DNA of 59,172 bases, the filler included, from Stramenopiles sp. TOSAG23-2 (lineage: Eukaryota): assembly GCA_900128395.1 (NCBI GenBank). It is 4 parts of 4 records of this genome, joined end to end, with 100 filler letters (N's around TTAATTAATTAA, not from the genome) between each part and the next. Parts side by side here need not be neighbours in the genome. Positions count along the whole stretch, not along the records: positions 14,893 to 29,625 come from LT649747.1; 3 more parts are not named here. One strand, written 5' to 3'. Below, piece after piece: positions 5,623-54,504 of the stretch; the stretch's first letter is position 1; each line of letters starts with the position of its first letter. The notes below the pieces were generated by a model that saw only the letters and a list, made by a program, of their open reading frames with translations, was not told where the DNA came from and searched no databases. Both the position numbers and the translations under genes were made by a program.

Positions 5623-6199
5623 AATTGGTATTTAATATATATATATGGTGCGTTTATATATATTTCCGTGCGTGCGTGTGTGCTTGTATATATATATATA
5701 TATAGACCGTATTTATGAAGTTAATAAAGCTTGTTGTCTTTTATAATTGTAATATTTTATATATCCTTCTTATTCAACTTATTGGAATCTAATTTTCCTA
5801 AAGCACTAAACATTCCAATACATCATCAGTATTCATTTAGTCTAATAAATAATACTGTAAGATCTCTGGATCTTTCACACAACAACTTTCACACTTTTGG
5901 TGGTGTTTTGTGTTTTGCCATTTGGATTTTTTCTTTGCCTGTATGTGCCTATCAAATATCGTAGAAGAAGAAGTATAATAAAATTTTATGGGCCCGCCGT
6001 TATAATAAATTTATAGTTGAAATAACTGTGATAATAATAAATATATGTCACTAATACTGGAAATACACAAACGTGCAAACCATTTTCTTCCATATTAGTT
6101 TTTTGTATGTTTTCTTTTTTACATATATATATATATCCTTCTTATAATAACAAATAGAAAATAAGGAAAAGATTTTTATTTGTAGAATAATAATCGAAA

Positions 6200-9100
6200 A
6201 TGACAAATCGTAATGATAAAAAATTTCATTTATTACAATTAAATCCAACGACGAAAAAAATGGAAGCAAAAACAAATAGAAGCTCTAACATTAATATGCC
6301 TGTAGTAGATAAAATCAAGCAATTAAAACGAAATTTAAATAATCAAGTAAATATTTGTCACTTTAACTTTCAACAACGACATGGTAAATTAGATATCAAA
6401 CTTCTTGAACGTATTGATTTAGATGATATTATTGATAATAATAATATTGAACAAATCCATAATAGTATTGAAAATATAACATTTGCAAAAATTGAGGTAA
6501 AAGATTTAAATTTTTTAGCAGATGCATTACAAATTAAATTATATCACTTGTTTCAGTTTGCTGTAGAGTATTTTCTAAATATGCATTTACATTCATCACA
6601 AAAAGCATTGAAATATAAGAAACAAAATGAAAAGTTAAAATTATTGAGTAAAAGTAAAAATGAATACAATAAACTTTTATTGAAGGAAAATAAACATTTA
6701 AAGCAAGGTATGAACTTACAATGTAAAGCGTTGATGGCATATGAAAATTTGTTATTGCGTGGTATTCAAGATAAAAATACACCGTATACCTACAATATAG
6801 TTACTGAATGGAGAGAAAAATTTGAAATTTTTAATGCAAAAAACAAAATGAAAAATAAGACAAGAGCTAGTAAAGAGAAAGTGAAAGAGAAGAATAATAT
6901 TAGTAAAAGTAGTAATGTTGAAAATACAAATCCGTAATGATAAAAAATTTCATTTATTACAATTAAATCCAACGACGAAAAAAATGGAAGCAAAAACAAA
7001 TAGAAGCTCTAACATTAATATGCCTGTAGTAGATAAAATCAAGCAATTAAAACGAAATTTAAATAATCAAGTAAATATTTGTCACTTTAACTTTCAACAA
7101 CGACATGGTAAATTAGATATCAAACTTCTTGAACGTATTGATTTAGATGATATTATTGATAATAATAATATTGAACAAATCCATAATAGTATTGAAAATA
7201 TAACATTTGCAAAAATTGAGGTAAAAGATTTAAATTTTTTAGCAGATGCATTACAAATTAAATTATATCACTTGTTTCAGTTTGCTGTAGAGTATTTTCT
7301 AAATATGCATTTACATTCATCACAAAAAGCATTGAAATATAAGAAACAAAATGAAAAGTTAAAATTATTGAGTAAAAGTAAAAATGAATACAATAAACTT
7401 TTATTGAAGGAAAATAAACATTTAAAGCAAGGTATGAACTTACAATGTAAAGCGTTGATGGCATATGAAAATTTGTTATTGCGTGGTATTCAAGATAAAA
7501 ATACACCGTATACCTACAATATAGTTACTGAATGGAGAGAAAAATTTGAAATTTTTAATGCAAAAAACAAAATGAAAAATAAGACAAGAGCTAGTAAAGA
7601 GAAAGTGAAAGAGAAGAATAATATTAGTAAAAGTAGTAATGTTGAAAATACAAATCCAAACAAAAATGCAAATGCTTCTTCATCATCTTCGAGTGATTTA
7701 ACAACGTTGAAACCGGTATTAGAGAAAGTCGTTGAACGCGCGCTTGTAAAACAAGCACATGTTACTCGAAAACAGGAGGTTGAAGATGAATTGAATTTAA
7801 TAAACATGCAATTAAAAAAGGCTGAACAGCAGCTTAAGGTTGTAAAATCAGAAGAAAATTTGAAAAATATTACGAATTCTAGTATATTAGAAAAGTTAGA
7901 CATATTAGCAAAACGTGGGGAAGAATTATTTGCAAAACAGCAACAAGTAACAACCGATACAAAACCAACGACGCCAATAATGCAAGTTGAAATGAAAAAA
8001 GAGTCTAGAACAGTATCGACACAATCGCCAAAAGCAAGGAGATATTTATTTAAAGCTGGTGATAGAGTTGAAGCAGATGTTGAGTGGGATGAGTATTATC
8101 CTGGCACGGTCAAAAACGTTAATGATGACGGAACATATCATGTCATATTTGATGATGGCGAGGAAATCGAACGTGTTCTTGAGAGACAGATTCAAAAAGA
8201 AAGTATCGAAGCTGAGGAAAATATGGTGAATCTTGAAGTGCGAAATGTAGATGAAGAGATAGCGGCTTCCGCCCCTCCAACTACTGTAGTCGTTAGCGAG
8301 AAAGATCATTTCAAGAATAAACAAAAATGTCTTGAAGATATCATTGTACGAATGCGAACGAAAAAATTACGAGATACAGTTACAAATTGGAAATTACATA
8401 TCGCGCATCTTAAATATCTTAAAATTCAACATGAAAAGGAAGAATTTCAAGCAACATCGTTGAAAATGCAGGAAGAAATTGATTTACTAAAAGCTCAAAA
8501 ATTGGTATATGAGGAAAATCAAAAGAAACATAGAACAAAGATATCATCATTTGCACCGAAAGATACCGTTTCTGGTATATACACGGAAGAGGAAATTGCT
8601 TTAATAGTGAAACGATATTTAAGAGCATTAGAGCAAAAAGAAATAACAAATTCAATTTCTGATCGAATGGATAAAATAGATATGGATATAATGCACAAAA
8701 TGAATGATCCATCAGAATTCATATTTAAAGCTGAAGTATCGAGAAGAACAGATCGTTCGTTTCTTCTACCAGATTCACATCCAATACCAAGACACAAATT
8801 TATTGCAGCTAAATATCCACATCAAGTGAAAGAAATAAGAAAGCAAATTAATATAATAAATGGGAAACTACTTGAAAAAGCAAGAAAAGAATATGCTTTA
8901 GATCTTACAAAAAAACAATATTCAAATACCATGAATGAAAACTTACATCACAAAGTGATGAAGCACAATGCTATACATCTTGAACATTTGGAAGAGAATG
9001 AACAAAATAAGATGGAAGAGTTTAGTAACTTATCAGATTCACATGTAAAGGATTATTTCAAGAACGATTCGTTATATAAATTATATCTAGAGGAACGCGG

Positions 9101-10127
9101 GAAACACACTATCTCAAGTCATGAATTTCATGAGCGTGCAGAATTAAATAAGGTTTTAAAAGCGGCGATGGAGAATATACAAATACGCCGTTTAAGGCGT
9201 AAGCGACATCATCCGGAGACGTCAAAGATGGAACAATTAAGAATTGATAGGCAACTTGAACATCTTTTAAAAGGTGTAAAAAAGAAAAAAGACGTTAATT
9301 TTTGGAATGACGGCGATGATGTAGATGAAGAAAATGAAGGTGACAAGGAAGGAAGATATCAAAAGAGACCTCCATCACCACCATTGCCTCCAAAAACAGA
9401 TTCACCGCCGTTGCCATCAAGAAATAGTGCAAACAGTCCACCGCCATTACCAGCGCGTGAAATACCATCTCCAACTGAAAGAAATAATACTAATGATAAT
9501 GAAAAAAGTCCTCCTCAGAATATGAATTTACTTACTCAAAAAAGCAATGCATCAAATGCAAAAAACACACCAAAAATACAAATTCCTGCTCGACAACGAG
9601 CGGTATCAGCAGGTAGAAGAATGTTATCCAAGAAAACACCAAGTCCTAGAAATAGCGGTAACATAGTTACGTCACCATCGCCTGTGTCACCAAAATCTCC
9701 TTTTTCAAACCCAAAAAAGATAGTTCAAGAAGCCAGTGATAGCAACATAAAGGTAAAAGAAACTGTATCAAATGACGATGATGAATTTGATGAAATTATA
9801 GAAGATTCTGTAGAAACTCCATCTTCATCTTTACGAAATAAAAGCAGAAAGAAAACACCATTATCATCAGGTGCAAAGAAATTATGGTCAATGGATGATG
9901 AAGATGACTCTGTAAATCAATCCAAAACTGAAAAAGAGAAAGTATCTATTAACAAGGCTGATACCCAAAATACAGCTTTACATAGTACGAATAAAAATAA
10001 TGATAAAAGTCATGAGGATATGACGAATAATAATAAATCAAAGTGTTTCTACTTTTATTGCTATAGTTGTATCCAGTTTCTGGTAATAGCCGTGTTTTCG
10101 ATGATCTTACTGATGAAGGACGATTAA
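6200..10127 (+). CDS. DZIP1/Iguana-like basal-body protein with a Tudor-like domain; 5' part duplicated in this assembly, 3' end uncertain
   Basis: FNFQQRHGKLDIKLLERIDLDDII...IENITF...LYHLFQFAVEYFL matches the DZIP-like N-terminal domain, followed by coiled coil. FKAGDRVEADVEWDEYYPGTVKNVNDDGTYHVIFDDG is Tudor-like. Collapsing the 724-bp duplication gives one ORF from ATG 6200. Confidence 0.75.
6209..7656. repeat. Apparently exact 724-bp tandem duplication (6209-6932 / 6933-7656), frameshifting
   Basis: The ORF translations of both copies are identical; ACAAATC microhomology at the junction. Confidence 0.95.
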
Positions 10128-12900
10128 CAATACAATTTCCCTTATTAGCAGTATTTCTCAATACTAGAATTTTCCCTGTTTGTCTAGAGTTACTCCTGTC
10201 AACACGAGAGCGGGCTCTTGATGTAGTTAAAGGTACTTGCTTTTTCCTCAAAACAGGTGATATGATACTTTTTGGACTTTGTCGCAACTTTTTTGTTAAT
10301 GGTCTATGTAATAATCTTGCCTGCCTTGCTTTTTCTTCCATGACTTTTTTTAAGAATATTTTATATTGTAGATCTTCAATTCGCCTGGCCCTTTTTGCAT
10401 CTTCAAAAGCTTTGATTTGAAATTTCCTACGGTATTCTTGTCTAGCTAAATGTTGTCGTATGGCACATTGGATTACTATAGCTTTTTTCATAGCATTTAA
10501 ATACCTTCTTCTCATGATAACTACACGAATAATTGCTTGAACCATTATTATATGAAATTTTCGCTTACTTATTATAACTTTAGTTCTGTGCATTCTATAT
10601 ATTGATTGTATTTTCGTCGCTGCGTATGTTTGCCTTTCGTGTTCTCGTTTTTGAATCCGGGACTTTAAATCTTCGCCTGTACGGATAGACCAACCGCGAT
10701 AAAGTTTTTGTACTTTAATTGCTGAATCTCGTAACATTCTTTTTAGATTTAATATATTTTGTCTGCGGATATGATATCCACGAGAAAAGGCTTGAATTTT
10801 TACACTTGCTTTCTTTCTTTTTTCTGCTCTTTTAAGATGTAAAATCCTTTGTTTTCTGGTTGAATATGCACGGTAATGCTTTTGTAAGCATATAGAGGCG
10901 TTTTCTTTACGTATTTTTTCTGCCTTTTCTCTTTTTTTTTTAAACATACGTTTTCTTCTTGCCAAATCCTTACTATTTCGAACTATATAACCACGGCTGT
11001 ATCTTTGAATTCGTATTGTTGCTTTTTCTTTCTTTTTTCTCAATCGTTTCAAACGTTGTGCTCTTCGTTCAGATTTTCTTTTACGCAGGACTGACCCGGA
11101 AAGGACTATATGGCGACGAACGTATTTTTGGATTACAATCGCTTTTTTAACTCGCATTGCTTCAAAATTTTTCTTCCAATGTACATTCAGCTTTTGCTGG
11201 TTTTCAATATGTTTTAAACCAGCTATTTTTCTACCTTGATGACCTCTGTATGATTGTTGAATGATAACAGCATTTTCATTTTTTATTTTTTCCATGTCTT
11301 GGACTTCTTTTTTCTTCAACGTTTCCCCCTGTACCCTACGTCTCCTTTCAGCTTCTTTCTCTTCTAAACTACCAACAACGAGTACAGTTTCAGTTTTCTG
11401 AAATGTACCTGCAACTTCTTGATGAGATTCATAATTGTTTTCATTTAATTGCAATGACTGTGTTAAGGATCTCAAAGCAGAATTCGTTTCACTATCTAGA
11501 ACATCATCAAATCCTACAAAAGGCTCCCCTAATGGATCGTTGCGATTTCTCAATTTCTTCTTTGGTGATTCTCCATTTTGTGATAAATTGGATAAGAAAT
11601 TGTCTATATTGCCCAAAGTGTCAATGTCTTCTTTGCTACTTTTTACTTCTATTCCTTCCCCGTCGTCTTCCATTCCGTTTAGCTCTTTCATCGATACACG
11701 GCCTTCATGGTAGTATTTGTCGCCCTCATCTTCAAGATAATAACCATTCTCATCATAATATCCTGCCGCATCGTCGTCTTGTTTTTCAGGATAATTATCA
11801 TACTTGGTCACTCCTATTTCATGTGTGTTATTTTTTGACTTTTTATTTTGTTTTACATTATTATCGATTACTTCTTTTCTTTCTTTTGGTTGCTGCTTCT
11901 CTTCAACTATTAGTGTTGGTGTCTCTTTTTTGGTTGAATTATCTTGCCTAGCATTGTGTCCCCTGTACACTTTTTGAACCAACGTGGCAGCCTCTTTTCT
12001 TTTCTTAGTTTCTATTTCCATTTTATGATTACGTCTTGCGTTATGGCCACGAAATGTTTTTTGTAAATTGACTGCAGCATCTGTTCGTTTTTTAAGTCTA
12101 GGATTTATTTCACTTCTTGTTTGGTATCCTCGATAACGTGATTGGATACGACGAGCATGTGCATGTTGTCGATCCATTTCTGTATCATCTGTTGCACTTG
12201 TGGCAGATATTTTATCAAATTCTTGATTTAAATGGAAATTATTAATAGACTCACTATCCTCGAAATCGTCTTCATATTCATCTTCGTCGTACGTTTCTTT
12301 TCCTAACCATTTACTAACTTTTACATTGGAATTCATATTTTTTTCATTGGCATCAATGGAATCTTTAATGGGTGAAGAGATTCCAGAATCAAGGTTGTCG
12401 ACATTCGCATTTACATTCACATTATCCCCATTATCGGTGTTGCTTAAAATGGTAGTAGAAACTTGTTTATCAACTGTAAACAATTGATTTAATATTTTTT
12501 CGTTTGTATCAACACTTGTGTGGTCCACGAAAGGAAATTCACTATTCGTATCTTCTTCGTTATTATTTTTTTCTAATAGAGCTAAAATACCAGTTTGTAC
12601 TTTTTCATCTACAAAAATTCCGTCCCCTAAATCATCTTCTTCGGAACTACTGCTTGAATCAAAAAATGTATCTTCGTCACTAAACGAATCATCAATTTTT
12701 TCTAAATGTTTCGTCCCATTTGTTTTGTCTTTGTCTACCCTTGTCCTTTCTTCGTTACTATTAGATGAGCTTGTTTTCGCTATTGTCTTGCCGTTGCGAG
12801 AGCTAATAACGTTATTATCAGGTGGTTTGCCTACAGATACATCAGAATCACTTGATTCGGATGCAAAGCTACTATCGTCGCTACTAAAATCATGATCCAT
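9949..12900 (-). CDS. Multi-IQ-motif (calmodulin-binding) protein
   Basis: Acidic N-terminus followed by many IQ motifs (IQSRYRGYQTR, LQKTFRGHNAR, VQKVYRGHNAR, IQRYSRGYIVR, IQAFSRGYHIR). The 3' end overlaps the opposite gene and is uncertain. Confidence 0.8.
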   Translation of the reverse strand: MDHDFSSDDSSFASESSDSDVSVGKPPDNNVISSRNGKTIAKTSSSNSNEERTRVDKDKTNGTKHLEKIDDSFSDEDTFFDSSSSSEEDDLGDGIFVDEKVQTGILALLEKNNNEEDTNSEFPFVDHTSVDTNEKILNQLFTVDKQVSTTILSNTDNGDNVNVNANVDNLDSGISSPIKDSIDANEKNMNSNVKVSKWLGKETYDEDEYEDDFEDSESINNFHLNQEFDKISATSATDDTEMDRQHAHARRIQSRYRGYQTRSEINPRLKKRTDAAVNLQKTFRGHNARRNHKMEIETKKRKEAATLVQKVYRGHNARQDNSTKKETPTLIVEEKQQPKERKEVIDNNVKQNKKSKNNTHEIGVTKYDNYPEKQDDDAAGYYDENGYYLEDEGDKYYHEGRVSMKELNGMEDDGEGIEVKSSKEDIDTLGNIDNFLSNLSQNGESPKKKLRNRNDPLGEPFVGFDDVLDSETNSALRSLTQSLQLNENNYESHQEVAGTFQKTETVLVVGSLEEKEAERRRRVQGETLKKKEVQDMEKIKNENAVIIQQSYRGHQGRKIAGLKHIENQQKLNVHWKKNFEAMRVKKAIVIQKYVRRHIVLSGSVLRKRKSERRAQRLKRLRKKKEKATIRIQRYSRGYIVRNSKDLARRKRMFKKKREKAEKIRKENASICLQKHYRAYSTRKQRILHLKRAEKRKKASVKIQAFSRGYHIRRQNILNLKRMLRDSAIKVQKLYRGWSIRTGEDLKSRIQKREHERQTYAATKIQSIYRMHRTKVIISKRKFHIIMVQAIIRVVIMRRRYLNAMKKAIVIQCAIRQHLARQEYRRKFQIKAFEDAKRARRIEDLQYKIFLKKVMEEKARQARLLHRPLTKKLRQSPKSIISPVLRKKQVPLTTSRARSRVDRSNSRQTGKILVLRNTANKGNCIVNRPSSVRSSKTRLLPETGYNYSNKSRNTLIYYYSSYPHDFYHYFYSYYVKLYFGYQPC

Positions 12901-12971
12901 GTCGAGACTTAAATATATTTACTGTATATCGCTGTTATAAATACAACACTTGTTTATTTAATTATTTACAA

Positions 12972-14792
12972 TCAACTGTATCAGCCACTGGCATCTGTCT
13001 ATCATGTCAGATCGGATTTTTTGCAAATAAACCAATGAATGCTACAGCATGTTTAAAGTGCCCTATTGGAAAGTACAATGAAAAAAAGGAAGCAATGACA
13101 TGTATTAGGTGTCGAAATGGAACTGTTTATCGTACAAATGGCAACAGTCCGTATTGTGTTCCATGTGGACCTGGAAAATATACAAATAGACGGACAAACA
13201 CATGTGACAATTGCATTGCTGGCTTTTTCAGTGACTTAATAGAAAATGATAATTGCCGTTTTTGTACATCAAAATCTACATCTAATAAATTGTCGGGATC
13301 AACATCATGTAGCAGCTGTCCCTTGGGCAAGACTCCAAGCTTAAATTATTATTTAAAAACGTAAGTTAAATTATGTATATCCCTAAATCTAGTAAATAAT
13401 CGTTTCTAACATACCATTCCTTCATACAATACGCTCCACAGATATGGATTTTGTTCCAAGAACGTTGAATCGATAGAAGTATGCAAAAAAGCAGCATTTG
13501 AATTAAGCTTGTTTGATAAAAATCCTACAGTGAGCGATTATGGCAATGTAAAGAACCCTCGATGCTGGTATGAGTTCCAAGAAGACATTGATCGATTAAA
13601 ATTTAGAGAATATATTTACGAGGATTCGTATAGCTATAATGAACAATGTTCACCAACTAAGCCATGTATCTGTGAGTATGACTCATCTGCTTTTCAAAAT
13701 ATTTACAGCTACGAGAAGAGAGATACTGGTATATGTTCTGAAACTAATGAAGTTTTATCGAAAGAAGAATGTTTTCATGGAATCATATCCTTGGGTTATC
13801 ATGTTGAATATACAAATGTTCGTGATTATGGTGATGCACATGTTCGCGATTATGGTTATGCACCTAAAGGATGCTTTATTGATGGATACACCCTACCTAG
13901 TGTTTCAGGCACTATTGTAACTACGGGAAATTCGTTACTTGCATACGTTAGTCAAGAACGCACTACAGATTGTTCATCTACATATCCATGTGTATGTCGA
14001 AAATCATTAACTGGACATTCTGCAGAGGCCAATTCCAAGGTAAAAGTTATTGATCATGGTACATGTGAAACACCGATTGAAAGCAGATCAAATTGTGAAG
14101 AAGCTGCTTTTGCTTTAAGTCCATCTGCTACATTTACAACCATGAGCACAGTTGCTGTACCCTCCGGTTGTTCTTTGTCAATTCCTCAATATGAATTCGT
14201 ACTTAATGATTACGATTGCTATTCTAAGATTGACTCTGAAGATGAATGTATAGAAGCTGGTAAAATATTTGATTTAGAATATGGGGGTAAAATAGACAGT
14301 TACTATTATCCAAAACGTTGTTTTTTGCAAGGTTCTAAGTTGTATTACAATGATCGATTGTATACATATTATGGCTGTGGTTATAAAGGTATTTCATGTT
14401 TGTGCAGGCAAAATTCTGGTTTTGATGGTAAAAAGTGGGAATATATATGGAATGAACCTCAAATCCAAAACACGAAACAGTGGCTGTGGTTATAAAGGTA
14501 TTTCATGTTTGTGCAGGCAAAATTCTGGTTTTGATGGTAAAAAGTGGGAATATATATGGAATGAACCTCAAATCCAAAACACGAAACAGTTTAGTAAATC
14601 AAGCTTAGGCGTATGTTCAACATCATGCACTTCATGTCAGGCTGGAAAATATAGTCAAGAATGTCTGAACTGTCCCGCTGGTCGTTACAATGAACGTTAT
14701 GACAGTAGCAGGATTGAAATGTTACAAGCTTGTAAGAAATGTCCGGAAGGCCGTGTAGGTTTTGAAGTTGGGAAAAATGATATTAGTACTGC
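12972..14792 (+). CDS. Cys-rich extracellular protein (GCC2/GCC3, ephrin-receptor-like CxxCxxG repeats plus 6-Cys modules); partial at both ends, one intron
   Basis: CLSCQIGFF, CLKCPIGKY, CVPCGPGKY and CLNCPAGRY repeats. Splicing 13361-13441 joins ORFs 13035 and 13509 in frame. A 109-bp duplication frameshifts the 3' part, and the gene runs into the scaffold end. Confidence 0.75.
13361..13441 (+). other. Spliceosomal intron (81 bp)
   Basis: GTAAGT donor, CTAAC branch point at 13406-13410, CAG acceptor. It removes an in-frame stop and restores ...YYLKT/YGFCSK. Confidence 0.9.
14372..14589. repeat. Exact 109-bp tandem duplication (14372-14480 / 14481-14589), frameshifting
   Basis: tggctgtggttataaagg...cacgaaacag is repeated directly. 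Confidence 0.95.
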
Positions 14793-14892
14793 NNNNNNNN
14801 NNNNNNNNNNNNNNNNNNNNNNNNNNNNNNNNNNNNTTAATTAATTAANNNNNNNNNNNNNNNNNNNNNNNNNNNNNNNNNNNNNNNNNNNN
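14793..14892. other. Artificial contig linker N44-TTAATTAATTAA-N44
   Basis: 100 nt with stops in all six frames; identical to the linkers at 29626 and 44402. Confidence 0.98.
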
Positions 14893-17955: not shown

Positions 17956-19578
17956 ATGGATCTAGTTTATTTTTCTGTATCATATTATCAAAATGTATTG
18001 TATAACTTAACATTATATACATGTATTGTTTTTTTCCTATTTTTTTTTATATTATTGATAATGTTTTTCTCGTGGAGACGAAAAACCTTTTTGGTTGATG
18101 TTGAGCGTAGCATAGTCCAATTGATTGCTGATTTTGCATTTAGTCGTATTCATTTAGTTATTAGGTCTATCTCTTGGCTTAATGGTTACAAAGATTTTTC
18201 AGAAGAAGAATGTAATAAAAATATAGTTATTGTCTCAATCTGTACAAACGGTCTTGGACATATTCATCAAGCTATTCGTGTATTGACTGTCCTAAAAGAG
18301 AAAAGTAATTTTAAAGCAGCAGCAATAGTCGTCGCGAAGCGATCAAAGCTTCCAGCGTATGCCAACGTTTTTCTAGAGGAATACGGCTGTAGAGAAATTA
18401 TTGATCTTGATTTTGAATTGGATTATGAAGGTGGGGGTAACAATGGAAAGGACAATCGAATAAATAATGTGAACATTATGTTCATGTTTTGCTACTCGAT
18501 GCTTTTTCATGGCGTTCGTATTTTTCGAACGGTTGGTAACGTCATGCAAACCTACCGTCCTGGTGTTTTATTGTCATTTTTTGAACCAATTTTTGCAAAT
18601 TTTATAAACTCGCATGATAATCCAACAAAGATAATAACTGCAGCAAGTCAAGGCAGTTTAAACATCGAGCAAGATGATTTAAAAAAAGTCTTATTTTTCC
18701 GATTATTATGGCAGTAAGTAAATTCTATTCACCCTATAAACCTAAAAAGGATATTATATCCTCTCTAACACATATCACACATTCATACACTACGCTACAC
18801 ACACACACAATCAGTGCAAATGTGGGTAGAAAAGGGCGAATAATTCCGTTTTGTCAATATCCATTAGAAAATGCAATTCCACAAATCGTAAACTTGCCTT
18901 CACCAAATAGTGAATATGTAAAAAGCACCGTTGTTGAAGTTGGGTTGGGTAGACACATATCAGCTGAAAGTGGAAATACGATGCCATTTCTTGTTGCGTA
19001 TTCTTGGTGAGTAATTAATGCATCAGTAAAATCCTATTCCCCTACACCGAAAAAAGATAACCTCTCTAACACATCACTCGTTCATACGCTATATGCTCCA
19101 CATCAGTATGCCAATGGTCTTAATACCTGGCATTATTAGAATCAGGAGACATCGTGTCATATTGTTTTCGAAAAATCATATGTATTGGGCAAAAAAATGC
19201 GAGAAATATAAAAATATTTTAGTATTGCCACGATCGCCAGATTTCATAGATGCACTTGCATGTAGTGCAGGTTTGATTTCGCAACCAAGTCGTGGTGTAG
19301 TTACACAAGCAATTGCATTAGGAAAACCGGTATATTTGTTTTGTCCAAAAGGTCATGTAGAACAAGAATTGAACTATAAATTGTATTTGTCACAATATGA
19401 AGGAATAGGCTCTCCATCAACTGTGACAATTGAAAAATGGGAGAAAACGGAATATAATCTAGTATCACAAGCACAACGTATGCGATCGTGGTTAAGCCAA
19501 ACTGATGAAAGAATTATGAGGAAAATAGGCTCTTTTCTACCATTAAATTATGAGAACCAGAAGATACTGGAACGGTGA
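17956..19578 (+). CDS. GT-B fold glycosyltransferase (MJ1255/GT1-GT28-like), N-terminal membrane anchor; join(17956..18713,18815..19006,19107..19578)
   Basis: SICTNGLGHIHQA N-terminal loop and DFIDALACSAGLISQPSRGVVTQAIALGKPVYLFCPKGHVEQELN C-terminal motif. Two GT-AG introns join three ORFs in frame. Confidence 0.8.
18714..18814 (+). other. Spliceosomal intron (101 bp), introner-like family member
   Basis: GTAAGT ... CTAAC (18765-18769) ... CAG; restores LLWH/ANVGRKG. Confidence 0.9.
19007..19106 (+). other. Spliceosomal intron (100 bp), introner-like family member
   Basis: GTGAGT ... CTAAC (19066-19070) ... CAG; restores VAYSC/MPMVLIP. Confidence 0.9.
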
Positions 19579-19993
19579 CCTGTGTGTGTGTGTGGGGGGG
19601 GGTATGTATATATATATATATATATATACGGCGGAGCATGAGAGCTTTATTATAGTATGATAAGGATAGCATATTATTCTTGCGATTGAGTATTGAGCAT
19701 ATATTGCTTAACATGAGAAGTAAAATTATTATATAAAATGTTCTCTTACTCATATATTTAACTTAGATTTTAACCATCCATATAATACGAAGTATGTATA
19801 CAGTGTATGCATACGAAATATATATCTCTAGTTACCACGGGGAAGTAAAATTATTACACAAGTGTAAAATATACGAACTTTATCGTAACTTTTTTCGTAG
19901 ATTTTAACTAATATCATGTACGAACTTCGTATCATACATTATATGCATTATGAAAATATCAGACAGTATATTTTTTTATCTCTTTTTTATTTT

Positions 19994-50425: not shown

Positions 50426-50429
<4 letters not shown>

Positions 50430-50464
<35 letters not shown>
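50430..50464. repeat. (CA)n microsatellite
   Basis: Long CA run just past the DDB1 stop codon. Confidence 0.95.
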
Positions 50465-50478: not shown

Positions 50479-53400
50479 TCAATGTAAACGTGTTAAATCT
50501 TCCACCAATTTGCTAACAATATCTACAGTCAATTTATCACCTCCATCATTGACACTACTACCACTGCTACTTTTGTTACCTTCACTGTTTTTACCAGCAT
50601 CGCGATTAGCAATCATGGAATCTACAATTTTACTCATTTCATCTTTACCTAAATCTAAAAATCGTTCGATCAAATCACCATCGATGAAATTTTTAGATGC
50701 ACTAGTTTTATCAGGAATATTTCTTTCATTGCAAAATGCACGCCATTGACTATGTGAAAATCCACCAACACCATTAATTACTTCATTTAATGCATTTTGC
50801 AACCGATGCAATAAATCAAATTGATTTTTTGTTAAATTTGCCAATGCAGAAATCGAACCAGATACAGTAGCAAAAAGCATTGTTGGTCTGATGTTGATCA
50901 TACTTGATGCAGTTGATATATCTGTATCATCATCAACATCCATACTATTACTACTAGAGCCATTGTCATTACCGATGTCGCTATTGCTATTACTATTGCT
51001 ATTACTACCACTGCTTTTATTATTATTACCAGCACCTTTAACATTTTCCATCGGTTGCATCACTAAGGAACCGTCTTGGAAACAATTTACAAATTCACCT
51101 AAATGGTATTCACCTGTAATTTCTAATCTTCCTCGTTCTTCTTCACTAGTTGCAGTACTATTCTTCTTTGCGACAAATAGATTAAAAGCATGTTCTGCAC
51201 CAATAAACGTATCGTCGTCTATTATACCTATTGCCGTCATCCAATTTGCATTGAAATCTCTAGCTATTTCTTCAATCATTCCTTCCAATGGCTTGTAAAC
51301 ACACAATGAGATAGATTTCATCAAATCTCCAACTAAGATAAAATCACCACGTGTTTGTAAATACAATGCTAAAATATGCCCATGCAAACCACATTTACTA
51401 TTTAATTCTTTTGGTACGTCTACACCTTCATCTGTATTACTCCATTCATACAATTGTATTTTACTATTTACACCGGCAAGTAAATTTCCATTAAACGATT
51501 TCAATGTATATACTGCACCAGGTGTATCAGCTTGTGCGACTAATTCCAAACGTTTTACGTTAATATTATTTGAATCTTCATCTGTTATAATGGTAGTAGT
51601 CGTAGTGGATGAATTATTATTATTAGAGGATTCGGTGGAATCAAAACTAGATACTTTAAAAACTAATATGCGCCCTCTTGATGGTTCTGGTTCATCTTCC
51701 AATGCATATGCAGTACCAACAACAAAATATTCCGTCGTTTCATCACCTTTGAACACGCACTTTGTTACTGATATTCCTTGTTCAAAATCATCCAAAGTAA
51801 AACTATCTACAATATCAAAAGTTTGCTCATCCATTAATCGTATATAATTCATCTCGATTTCTTCCCCATTCGTACTTTCATCTACTTGAAATCGATTGGT
51901 AACAATTGCAAATGCACCATATTGTTCACTATGGCAAATTCGTCTTGGTTGTTCATTCAATGGCACAGTCCTGACGTGTAATTTTTGGATTTCATCTAAG
52001 GTACCAATACACATTTCATCCTCCGATGCTAATGCAAGGCAATCTTCAAAATCTTCCGTATTAAATGGACAAACCACATTCACATCATTACGATTGACAC
52101 TGCTATAATGCACTTTGCCATTGCTGCTATATACTACAACAGGACGATCGCATCCTGCAAAAACATGTTGTGAATTCTTTGAACGAAATGTGGTTAAATT
52201 AATTGGTTGTGTACCAAGTGCAATTTTTTTCCTATTCGTCAATTCTCCAGAAGTTGAATCACACATAAAACGAACTAAATTGCCATCCCCTAAACCGACA
52301 AGTAAATGTGCTGCATTGTCAAATGTCGTCAATAATACAGATCTAGCAATTGTATCACCACTAAGACGGCATTGCTGTAAAATTTCTAACTTTGGTAAAT
52401 TTAAAATGTGTACACTCATATCATTCCACGTTCCAATGACACCAATATCAGCCTTTGTAGTATTATTGTTATTATTATTACCAGATGAGAATGTTAATGG
52501 GGAAATATCAATGCATGAAACTTCATTATCCAATGTTGCTTCATTTATTTCCTTTAAATTATTGCCACTATCATCCATTTCAAGTAAAATAATTTTTCCA
52601 CCACCTAATGCAAGTAATATATTCAACGGATTAGCAGCTGCAACTGTTATACGTTTATTATCGGCTGGTGGAGACCATTTTGTAACCAATTTTAACGTTT
52701 CACCATTAGCAATATTAACAGAATTTTCACTCACTTGTACAATATTTGTTCCAAGCATATTAGCACATACCAATGTACGCGTAGTACAATCAAATGCTTC
52801 GACTTCCACTTCTTCCATGGTTTGATCCTCTAAACCAAGTACACGAGTTTCTCCACGGAAAGTCATAACTAAATATTTATCAAACGCTGCAGTTAAAGAT
52901 GGTTTTAACGCCCATAAACCTTTAATACCATCCATTTCGATAGCTGCTTGTTCATTGATACCAATACCATTGCGAATAATTCGCAATGACCCATCTTTAA
53001 ATGCACCACTACAGGTAACAACTTGCCCACGCCCTTGATTCTCTAAATCAACAACGCAGAAATCCACAATAGGTCCTAAATTTTGATATAAATCAAGGAT
53101 TTCAACAAATGAACGTGTTTCTGGATTTCTTTCTTCCAATAAACGAACAAGTTGGGAATCACCAAATCCACTACCAACATGTACAACGCCAGAATCAAGG
53201 TAAACAATCGTGGAAGGAATACTCGTTACGCCTAGACGATCGATGTCTAAACCGCTCATTATACCATTATTTGATCTTAATACCAAAACCCAAAGACATC
53301 CTAAATGATCGCCTAATAAATATCTTGAACCATCCGCATCAATTTTTCCACTTGCACGCCAAACGACACTTGGTGTAGATAAGGATATTGGATTTTGACC

Positions 53401-54138
53401 ATTATGATAAGTTATGGATTGTTGACCAAGGATTAAGACACCACCACCAGTTGCCGTAGGCACTGGAACCAAAATCGATGCACCGGATTCAACATTTGGT
53501 TGATTCCAAGGACCTTCTACAAATTCTTTCCGATTTAATATAATTTTATATGTTTTCACATGACGTCGTTGTTTTCCATCTTCAAATAAAACACATACAG
53601 TTGGTACGGAGGTTCCATGTAAAAAGCACATATCAATGATTTGTAATTCTTCCAAACGAACGTTAAACGCCTCTTGTACTTTACCATCCTTTTCCAATGG
53701 AACGACTTTAAATAGACCATCATATAAATGCAATCCAATTAAACGGCACGATGGATCAACAATGCCTATTTGACCACCTTCAGTTGCCCGTCCAATAACA
53801 TCACGTACATTACCAGACGAGTGTGTACGTATGGTGCCTGTTTTAGTATCATAGCGTAATACACATACATCATATCGCTCAGTTAAAATGAATAATAATT
53901 CTTGTCCATTATTTCCTGATGTTGGGGTATATAACTCTAACGCAGCCACACGCCCATACAATGGAATTTCTAATATTGGTTGTAAACCTTCTTCAGTAAT
54001 TTTGGATAATTCTAACAGCGTACCCTTAGCGACTATTAAATTTAACTCATCTTTGCTTGTAAATCTACCACGTATCGCATGTGTCACCGCCGTTGGTTTC
54101 TGCGCCGTCACTACATAATTATAAGTTACATCCGTCAT
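50479..54138 (-). CDS. DDB1: DNA damage-binding protein 1 (CUL4 adaptor)
   Basis: YNYVVTAQKPTAV, NLGPIVDFCVVDLENQGRGQVVTCSGAFKDGSLRIIRNGIGI, DEIQKLHVRTVPL, FIDGDLIERFLDL, VEDLTRLH. Confidence 0.97.
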   Translation of the reverse strand: MTDVTYNYVVTAQKPTAVTHAIRGRFTSKDELNLIVAKGTLLELSKITEEGLQPILEIPLYGRVAALELYTPTSGNNGQELLFILTERYDVCVLRYDTKTGTIRTHSSGNVRDVIGRATEGGQIGIVDPSCRLIGLHLYDGLFKVVPLEKDGKVQEAFNVRLEELQIIDMCFLHGTSVPTVCVLFEDGKQRRHVKTYKIILNRKEFVEGPWNQPNVESGASILVPVPTATGGGVLILGQQSITYHNGQNPISLSTPSVVWRASGKIDADGSRYLLGDHLGCLWVLVLRSNNGIMSGLDIDRLGVTSIPSTIVYLDSGVVHVGSGFGDSQLVRLLEERNPETRSFVEILDLYQNLGPIVDFCVVDLENQGRGQVVTCSGAFKDGSLRIIRNGIGINEQAAIEMDGIKGLWALKPSLTAAFDKYLVMTFRGETRVLGLEDQTMEEVEVEAFDCTTRTLVCANMLGTNIVQVSENSVNIANGETLKLVTKWSPPADNKRITVAAANPLNILLALGGGKIILLEMDDSGNNLKEINEATLDNEVSCIDISPLTFSSGNNNNNNTTKADIGVIGTWNDMSVHILNLPKLEILQQCRLSGDTIARSVLLTTFDNAAHLLVGLGDGNLVRFMCDSTSGELTNRKKIALGTQPINLTTFRSKNSQHVFAGCDRPVVVYSSNGKVHYSSVNRNDVNVVCPFNTEDFEDCLALASEDEMCIGTLDEIQKLHVRTVPLNEQPRRICHSEQYGAFAIVTNRFQVDESTNGEEIEMNYIRLMDEQTFDIVDSFTLDDFEQGISVTKCVFKGDETTEYFVVGTAYALEDEPEPSRGRILVFKVSSFDSTESSNNNNSSTTTTTIITDEDSNNINVKRLELVAQADTPGAVYTLKSFNGNLLAGVNSKIQLYEWSNTDEGVDVPKELNSKCGLHGHILALYLQTRGDFILVGDLMKSISLCVYKPLEGMIEEIARDFNANWMTAIGIIDDDTFIGAEHAFNLFVAKKNSTATSEEERGRLEITGEYHLGEFVNCFQDGSLVMQPMENVKGAGNNNKSSGSNSNSNSNSDIGNDNGSSSNSMDVDDDTDISTASSMINIRPTMLFATVSGSISALANLTKNQFDLLHRLQNALNEVINGVGGFSHSQWRAFCNERNIPDKTSASKNFIDGDLIERFLDLGKDEMSKIVDSMIANRDAGKNSEGNKSSSGSSVNDGGDKLTVDIVSKLVEDLTRLH

Positions 54139-54150
54139 GCTTTTTTTTTT

Positions 54151-54504
54151 NNNNNNNNNNNNNNNNNNNNNNNNNNNNNNNNNNNNNNNNNNNNNNNNNN
54201 NNNNNNNNNNNNNNNNNNNNNNNNNNNNNNNNNNNNNNNNNNNNNNNNNNNNNNNNNNNNNNNNNNNNNNNNNNNNNNNNNNNNNNNNNNNNNNNNNNNN
54301 NNNNNNNNNNNNNNNNNNNNNNNNNNNNNNNNNNNNNNNNNNNNNNNNNNNNNNNNNNNNNNNNNNNNNNNNNNNNNNNNNNNNNNNNNNNNNNNNNNNN
54401 NNNNNNNNNNNNNNNNNNNNNNNNNNNNNNNNNNNNNNNNNNNNNNNNNNNNNNNNNNNNNNNNNNNNNNNNNNNNNNNNNNNNNNNNNNNNNNNNNNNN
54501 NNNN
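54151..54504. other. Within-scaffold assembly gap (354 N) between poly-T and poly-A tracts
   Basis: N run without the TTAATTAATTAA linker. Confidence 0.95.

Follow-up and report, generated by a model that had tools for sequence, protein, structure and literature searches.

Where new spliceosomal introns come from is an old open question, and most recently described introners resemble DNA transposons. The locus analyzed here raises that question in a concrete form: three introns in two unrelated genes resemble each other along their length, and we asked whether they are copies of a single mobile element and by what route such an element would have spread. The introns lie in a 59,172-nucleotide stretch of DNA (the window), which consists of four contig pieces (1-14792, 14893-29625, 29726-44401, and 44502-59172) joined by N/TTAATTAATTAA linkers, with internal gaps in two of the four. 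Taken as a whole, the explanation we consider likely is that all three come from a single introner family: its unit is a spliceosomal intron complete in itself, most often 79 bases in length, and each of the three is a copy of it. That this is a mobile intron family is, in our judgment, highly probable. Copies have entered many unrelated protein-coding genes in a marine protist, probably a stramenopile, whose genome is AT-rich and poor in introns.

The window has a G+C content of 33.5% and is dense with long unbroken reading frames for ordinary eukaryotic proteins, including a VPS15-like kinase, a Dzip1-like ciliary protein, Sin3, a histone deacetylase, an RSE1/SF3B3-like protein, RIB43A, and a stomatin-like protein. 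Because the stomatin-like protein has its best named relatives exclusively among stramenopiles (55-64% identity), we read the window as DNA of an uncultured marine stramenopile-like protist. The stretch is represented in marine DNA and RNA runs from 10 studies; the RNA runs contain 0.34-0.41 of sampled window words, a measure of presence only that has no bearing on splicing. The RSE1/SF3B3-like spliceosome gene (50482-54150, minus strand) runs without introns over 1,223 codons before an N gap at 54151, and other window genes of more than 1,000 codons are likewise intronless. Inside the Dzip1-like gene, a direct repeat at 6149-7172 (724-nt spacing, at least 300 nt, 91% identical) sits where the frames 6194-6937 and 6885-10127 overlap; it reflects either true duplication within the gene or an error of assembly.

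Three introns in two unrelated genes

A whole-window scan that joined open reading frames returned 42 candidate GT...AG pairs, and a stricter donor-plus-CTAAC pattern returned 6 matches. Only the introns designated i1, i2, and i3 appear in both lists with canonical signals and a closed read-through frame. Their coordinates and sequences are as a sequence-only reading of the window had described them:

13361..13441, plus strand: intron i3, 81 nt, phase 2, GTAAGT...CAG; R1 53.1 bits, E 1.3e-14
13404-13410, plus strand: TTCTAAC box of i3, the counterpart of the CTCTAAC box of i1
17956..18713, plus strand: exon 1 of the gene hosting i1 and i2; start at 17956 or 18061
18714..18814, plus strand: intron i1, 101 nt, phase 2, GTAAGT...CAG; family match at 18714-18801; R1 57.4 bits, E 5.6e-16
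18763..18769, plus strand: CTCTAAC box of i1, branch-point-like, with a putative branch-site role
18815..19006, plus strand: exon 2 of the gene hosting i1 and i2
19007..19106, plus strand: intron i2, 100 nt, phase 2, GTGAGT...CAG; family core at 19025-19102; R1 65.2 bits, E 2.1e-18
19064-19070, plus strand: CTCTAAC box of i2, the same box as in i1
19107..19578, plus strand: exon 3 of the gene hosting i1 and i2, terminating at a stop codon

Each of the three connects open frames, all in phase 2. The 3' end of i1 is stretched by a (CA)n run ahead of the CAG acceptor, and i2 carries at its 5' end an extra ~15-18 nt bearing the GTGAGT donor in use. Full-length homologues of the gene that hosts i1 and i2, 73-80% identical, are continuous across both junctions. 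They read ...LLWH|ANVGKKG... at i1 and ...VAYSC|MP.VL... at i2, with the residues predicted for the split codons: the junction residue H of i1 is kept in homologues P0001-P0003, and the junction residue C of i2 is also kept in homologues. A search with the exon 3 protein for same-species spliced products returned homologues only, with nothing above 80% identity. As for the product of this gene, which had been labeled a glycosyltransferase, the exon pieces have no Pfam match, and sub-threshold matches to PF13528 among the homologues (E 0.006-0.05) weakly suggest a GT-B glycosyltransferase-like protein.

The third intron lies, as had been stated, on a different contig piece; its host is a cysteine-rich Ephrin_rec_like gene unrelated to the host of i1 and i2. 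A protein search with the exon downstream of i3 gave no match at E <= 1e-20. Two irregularities were seen in this gene. Upstream of ~12972 (12900-12990), the window diverges from contigs L012 and L023, which agree with each other (97.6%) and in which the coding frame goes on with an extra ordinary intron (L012 802-874); the window copy of the gene is thus shortened by a chimeric join or a rearrangement. Elsewhere in the gene (14296-14844), a frame change near 14300-14495 in the window corresponds to a single 770-codon frame in L023, and is likely a draft error or a real frameshift.

Semi-global alignment of the introns gave identities of 67/78 for i1 and i2, 62/80 for i1 and i3, and 56/79 for i2 and i3, with scores (z 6.9-8.0) that were matched in 0 of 1,000 dinucleotide shuffles in which the first six and last three intron bases were held fixed. 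The likeness reported earlier therefore runs from end to end, and the 18/20 match of 13421-13440 to 18782-18801 is real. A three-box motif derived from the boxes common to the three introns occurs three times in the window, compared with no occurrence in 100 shuffles. Searches of the window with blastn-short and with a covariance model of the family revealed no copies beyond these three.

The family in marine metagenomes

The three-box motif had 78 matches on 75 marine metagenome contigs, and 75 of the 78 matches are complete introns of ~79-101 bases. After de-duplication by flanking sequence, these make up 52 distinct sites, namely the 3 in the window and 49 new ones. The other three matches (on L003, L024, and L047) come without the rest of the element and are on contigs of differing composition; among viral contigs, the motif had one chance match, within a coding region and with no donor. 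A profile built from family copies found 88 copies in the window and the family loci, 10 of which the motif had missed and which add 7 further sites, for 59 in total. The same 88 were recovered by a structure-free covariance model at E <= 4e-9, with one marginal match at E 0.76 and none between, and Rfam gave just a chance-level snoRNA match (E 0.56). Family loci have 28-38% G+C (mean 33.5%), matching the window. Four contigs (L008, L042, L012, and L023) are orthologous to the window, with 95-98.5% identity, and none of the three introns is missing from them; the orthologous copies of i3 are in L012 and L023. Among ten host frames tested, eight matched differing Pfam families and two had no match; the families are a desaturase, a polycystin-domain protein, an ABC transporter, an ion channel, a BAR-domain protein, a short-chain dehydrogenase, a class C receptor, and Ephrin_rec_like. 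The proposal that the three introns belong to an introner family is supported by this abundance of related introns in unrelated genes.

Family copies are 79-101 nt long, and the mode, exactly 79 nt, accounts for 13 of the 51 sites at which both junctions are present. They start with GTAAGTAAATTC at the donor, carry a CTCTAACA box ~30 nt from the end, and finish in a C/A-rich tail, TTCATAC...GCTCCACAG. We take the CTCTAACA-type box to be a probable branch site; TCTAACA is retained in every one of the 10 copies whose detection did not depend on it. Similarity covers all 79 positions, and G makes up 9% of the sense strand. Any two copies are on average 82% identical from end to end and 76% identical in the 5' part, which the motif leaves unconstrained; the search motif is located in the 3' half, and conservation there comes partly from sample selection. 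The nearest neighbor of a copy is typically 91% identical (median; maximum 96%). The repeat unit coincides with the intron itself: the two boundaries are the same at 37 of 51 sites, and at the other 14 an offset of 1-15 nt stems from CA slippage or from short duplications at the ends. Other copies, too, show CA slippage and short 5' duplications like those of i1 and i2.

Two observations concern the lengths of these introns. An indel of ~50 nt, located in the 5' part, distinguishes the orthologous family introns of L014 (2500-3000) and L049 and indicates that copies quickly change length. GT/CA dinucleotide microsatellites lie directly past gene ends in the window (19581-19594 and 50429-50464), and CA slippage as in these microsatellites also lengthens the 3' ends of several family introns.

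Removal of family copies restores reading frames. Open frames of at least 40 codons flank the intron on both sides at 43 of the 51 sites, and of at least 100 codons on both sides at 33; at 50 of 51, a frame of at least 100 codons is present on one side. Phases 0, 1, and 2 are represented 16, 14, and 21 times. The 10 additional copies found by the profile all restore sense frames, weakly so (13 + 35 codons) in the case of a 5'-rearranged copy in L014. A single site, seen in L052, L056, L060, and L073, has a 5' flank that looks noncoding; there the copy lies at the 3' end of a longer intron, which begins with an upstream GTGAGT. Judging from the restored frames and the continuous homologues, family copies appear to be spliced.

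Footprints and competing explanations

How might such an intron multiply? The likeliest route would pass through RNA. An excised intron would be reverse-spliced into another transcript or into transcribed DNA, and would then be copied back to the genome via reverse transcription and recombination (or would retrohome into DNA). Spread of this kind predicts insertions that are exactly GT...AG, with no target bases duplicated or lost, no inverted ends, and copies only on the sense strand of genes.

We looked for target-site duplications (TSDs) by checking, position by position, whether the bases around the donor match those around the acceptor, as described in a published survey (PMC9860276). Counts at all 20 junction positions equaled the permutation means across the 51 sites, and repeats between exon end and exon start were not in excess. 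The direct repeats that had been noted in the window, CAGT at 18712/18812 and CATCAGTA at 19021/19101, do exist; as junction repeats are at chance level over the 51 sites, they are neither a family feature nor a TSD. Terminal inverted repeats (TIRs) were also not found, with 5 of 20 end positions complementary, the chance level. RNA structure is no more pronounced: mean minimum free energy is -2.6 kcal/mol, mean z is 0.25 with z < -2 in 2 of 51 copies, and the consensus value is 0.0. In the exons, an AG directly ahead of the donor is present at only 3 of 51 sites, and G is mildly enriched at -1 (19/51, p 0.003) and +1 (18/51, p 0.007) relative to a 20% background. The composition at -1 (G 19, T 16, A 10, C 6) does not fit a Helitron-like A|T insertion. 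In 452 kb of family-bearing DNA (window plus loci), of which 15-19% lies outside ORFs of at least 100 codons, none of the 88 profile matches is intergenic or antisense; copies outside genes had been suggested as something to look for. Copies show no 3' positional bias (mean relative frame position 0.52, KS p 0.32, n 42).

A filled and an empty version of one site are present side by side in L045 (1-1879), which holds two tandem short-chain dehydrogenase paralogues that are ~92-95% identical. The intron is found only in the first (copy A, 766-849). Copy B is continuous at 1785|1786, with no base gained or lost and with flanks that are 94.6% (upstream) and 91.5% (downstream) identical. The pair represents either a footprint-free gain or a precise loss, equally. 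The reading frame in L045 continues from the first paralogue into the second.

The family could also be a non-autonomous DNA transposon, MITE-like or other, that carries both splice sites and owes its genic, sense-only pattern to insertion preference and selection. We regard this as a real possibility, albeit one that we are inclined to doubt. The survey (PMC9860276) reports a TSD or TIR in most non-ascomycete introner families and gene enrichment in 161 of 175 genomes, and treats some families with neither mark as DNA elements all the same; the lack of a 3' positional bias is also in keeping with a DNA element. Against it stand the absence of TSDs and TIRs at the sites analyzed here, the L045 empty site without a footprint, and the finding that 0 of 88 copies are nongenic or antisense. 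A cognate transposase, another proposed mark of mobility, was not seen in the window.

The footprint and distribution results thus favor, without proving, the RNA route over a cut-and-paste element. Several points weigh on the other side. Sense-only copies in coding DNA are expected under any model, since antisense insertion would be lethal; the 3' bias predicted by some models of cDNA recombination is missing; the L045 empty site is explained equally well by precise intron loss; and published surveys argue that most non-fungal introners move as DNA (PMC9860276). We put spread through RNA at close to an even prospect, a little on the tentative side.

A very improbable explanation, which had been raised as an alternative when the three introns were first noticed, dispenses with a mobile element and holds that an unusually long intron consensus makes all introns converge. 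All three introns detectable in the window do fit the family, and GTAAGT and CTAAC serve the host as general signals too. The family coexists with ordinary introns, however. About nine of these, 73-171 nt long, are found on the same contigs, several in genes that also bear a family copy:

L002: 396-489
L012: 802-874
L020: 1506-1660
L031: 1239-1349
L034: 1067-1172 (minus strand)
L037: 2196-2305
L046: 11004-11174
L055: 2755-2868
L072: 5330-5469

Another four are doubtful, and entries from L047, a chance locus, were left out. What ordinary introns have in common with the family is a GTAAGT-like donor, a CTAAC box, and YAG; ten that were tested range from 72 to 171 nt, as opposed to the family mode of 79 nt, and the best match of the family profile to these ten has an E value of 0.08. 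Because they share only general signals, and because family similarity extends over all 79 positions at a fixed modal length, we conclude that this is a repeat family and not a species-wide splice consensus. By a rough count from a biased sample, and with the locus-recruiting copy excluded, these contigs carry family and ordinary introns in roughly equal numbers. The ordinary intron in L034 matches the family model faintly (1100-1172; E 0.76, or 0.08 in a small test) and, like i1, contains a long (CA)n run; it is possibly a family copy in decay.

Two other explanations have a negligible chance of being correct. Local duplication or gene conversion between i1 and i2, with i3 a chance look-alike, would suit their position 293 nt apart in one gene and their common phase 2, but the nearest relatives of i1 are copies in other genes (91% identity to the copy in L038) and not i2, which makes i1 and i2 independent members of a family with 59 distinct sites. 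An artefact of assembly or library, for instance adaptor-like inserts taken for introns, could be suspected in a joined draft with gaps in which at least one join disagrees with other contigs, but copies occur under several accession prefixes, which we read as independent assemblies, diverge from each other, always lie where their removal restores a frame, and are all three kept in the orthologous contigs.

Relation to known introners

Introners were first seen in Micromonas (PMC9860276; PMC11282704). According to the survey by Gozashti et al. 2022 (PMC9860276), 548 families are present in 175 of 3,325 genomes, 520 Tara Oceans genomes included; the families have median lengths of 30-654 nt, and in some of them both TSD and TIR are missing. 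The present family resembles the introners catalogued there in comprising similar introns in unrelated genes, with similarity that begins at the intron ends, in a marine protist and at a length within the 30-654 nt range, and it resembles some of them in having no TSD or TIR. The broad definition given there calls for at least four similar introns in unrelated genes, and here there are 59 sites with a mean identity of 82%; similarity is bounded by the intron-exon junctions (exactly so at 37 of 51 sites) and does not stem from paralogous exons. In contrast to catalogued introners, this family seems to account for about half of all introns in an intron-poor genome. It may already be among the published Tara Oceans introner catalogue. 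Our literature search returned no paper joining introners with MAST-4 and nothing of relevance for heterotrophic flagellates.

The MITE-type introners of Micromonas pusilla, as described in a review (PMC11282704), are likewise short, high-copy, and genic, with each copy predisposed to splicing, in a marine picoeukaryote. The Micromonas elements have inverted ends and 3-nt TSDs, and the duplication supplies one of their splice sites (PMC11282704), whereas the present family has both splice sites inside the element and no TSD or TIR. Of the marks of MITE-type introners (Micromonas IE1, Aureococcus), namely TSDs, TIRs, and copies outside genes or in either orientation, the family shows none in the DNA analyzed here.

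Fungal introner-like elements (ILEs), as described by Collemare et al. 2013 (PMC3609843), have no TSD or TIR, are strongly genic, and have been proposed to spread by reverse splicing, and in the lack of TSD and TIR and in its confinement to genes this family is like them. Decay of ILEs into ordinary-looking introns, also described there, has a possible parallel in the faint match at L034 1100-1172 (E 0.76). The same paper describes ILEs as longer than regular introns and stably folded; the present family is neither longer nor structured, and its host is not a fungus. At its most far-reaching, our reading would make this an RNA-propagated introner outside fungi: a minimal intron of 79 unstructured bases that would multiply through reverse splicing without a DNA footprint, would make up about half of the host's introns, and would have left the ordinary introns behind as decayed copies. 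We consider that full picture rather unlikely.

The family offers a very small example of an introner without any mark of a DNA transposon, together with a filled/empty pair that is free of a footprint. Its host, an uncultured protist abundant in the ocean, is covered by many metagenomes and metatranscriptomes, so intron gain, and the RNA against the DNA route, can be tested at the population level. Gene models of the host and its relatives should mask the 79-base unit. Among known systems, the family belongs with the introners.
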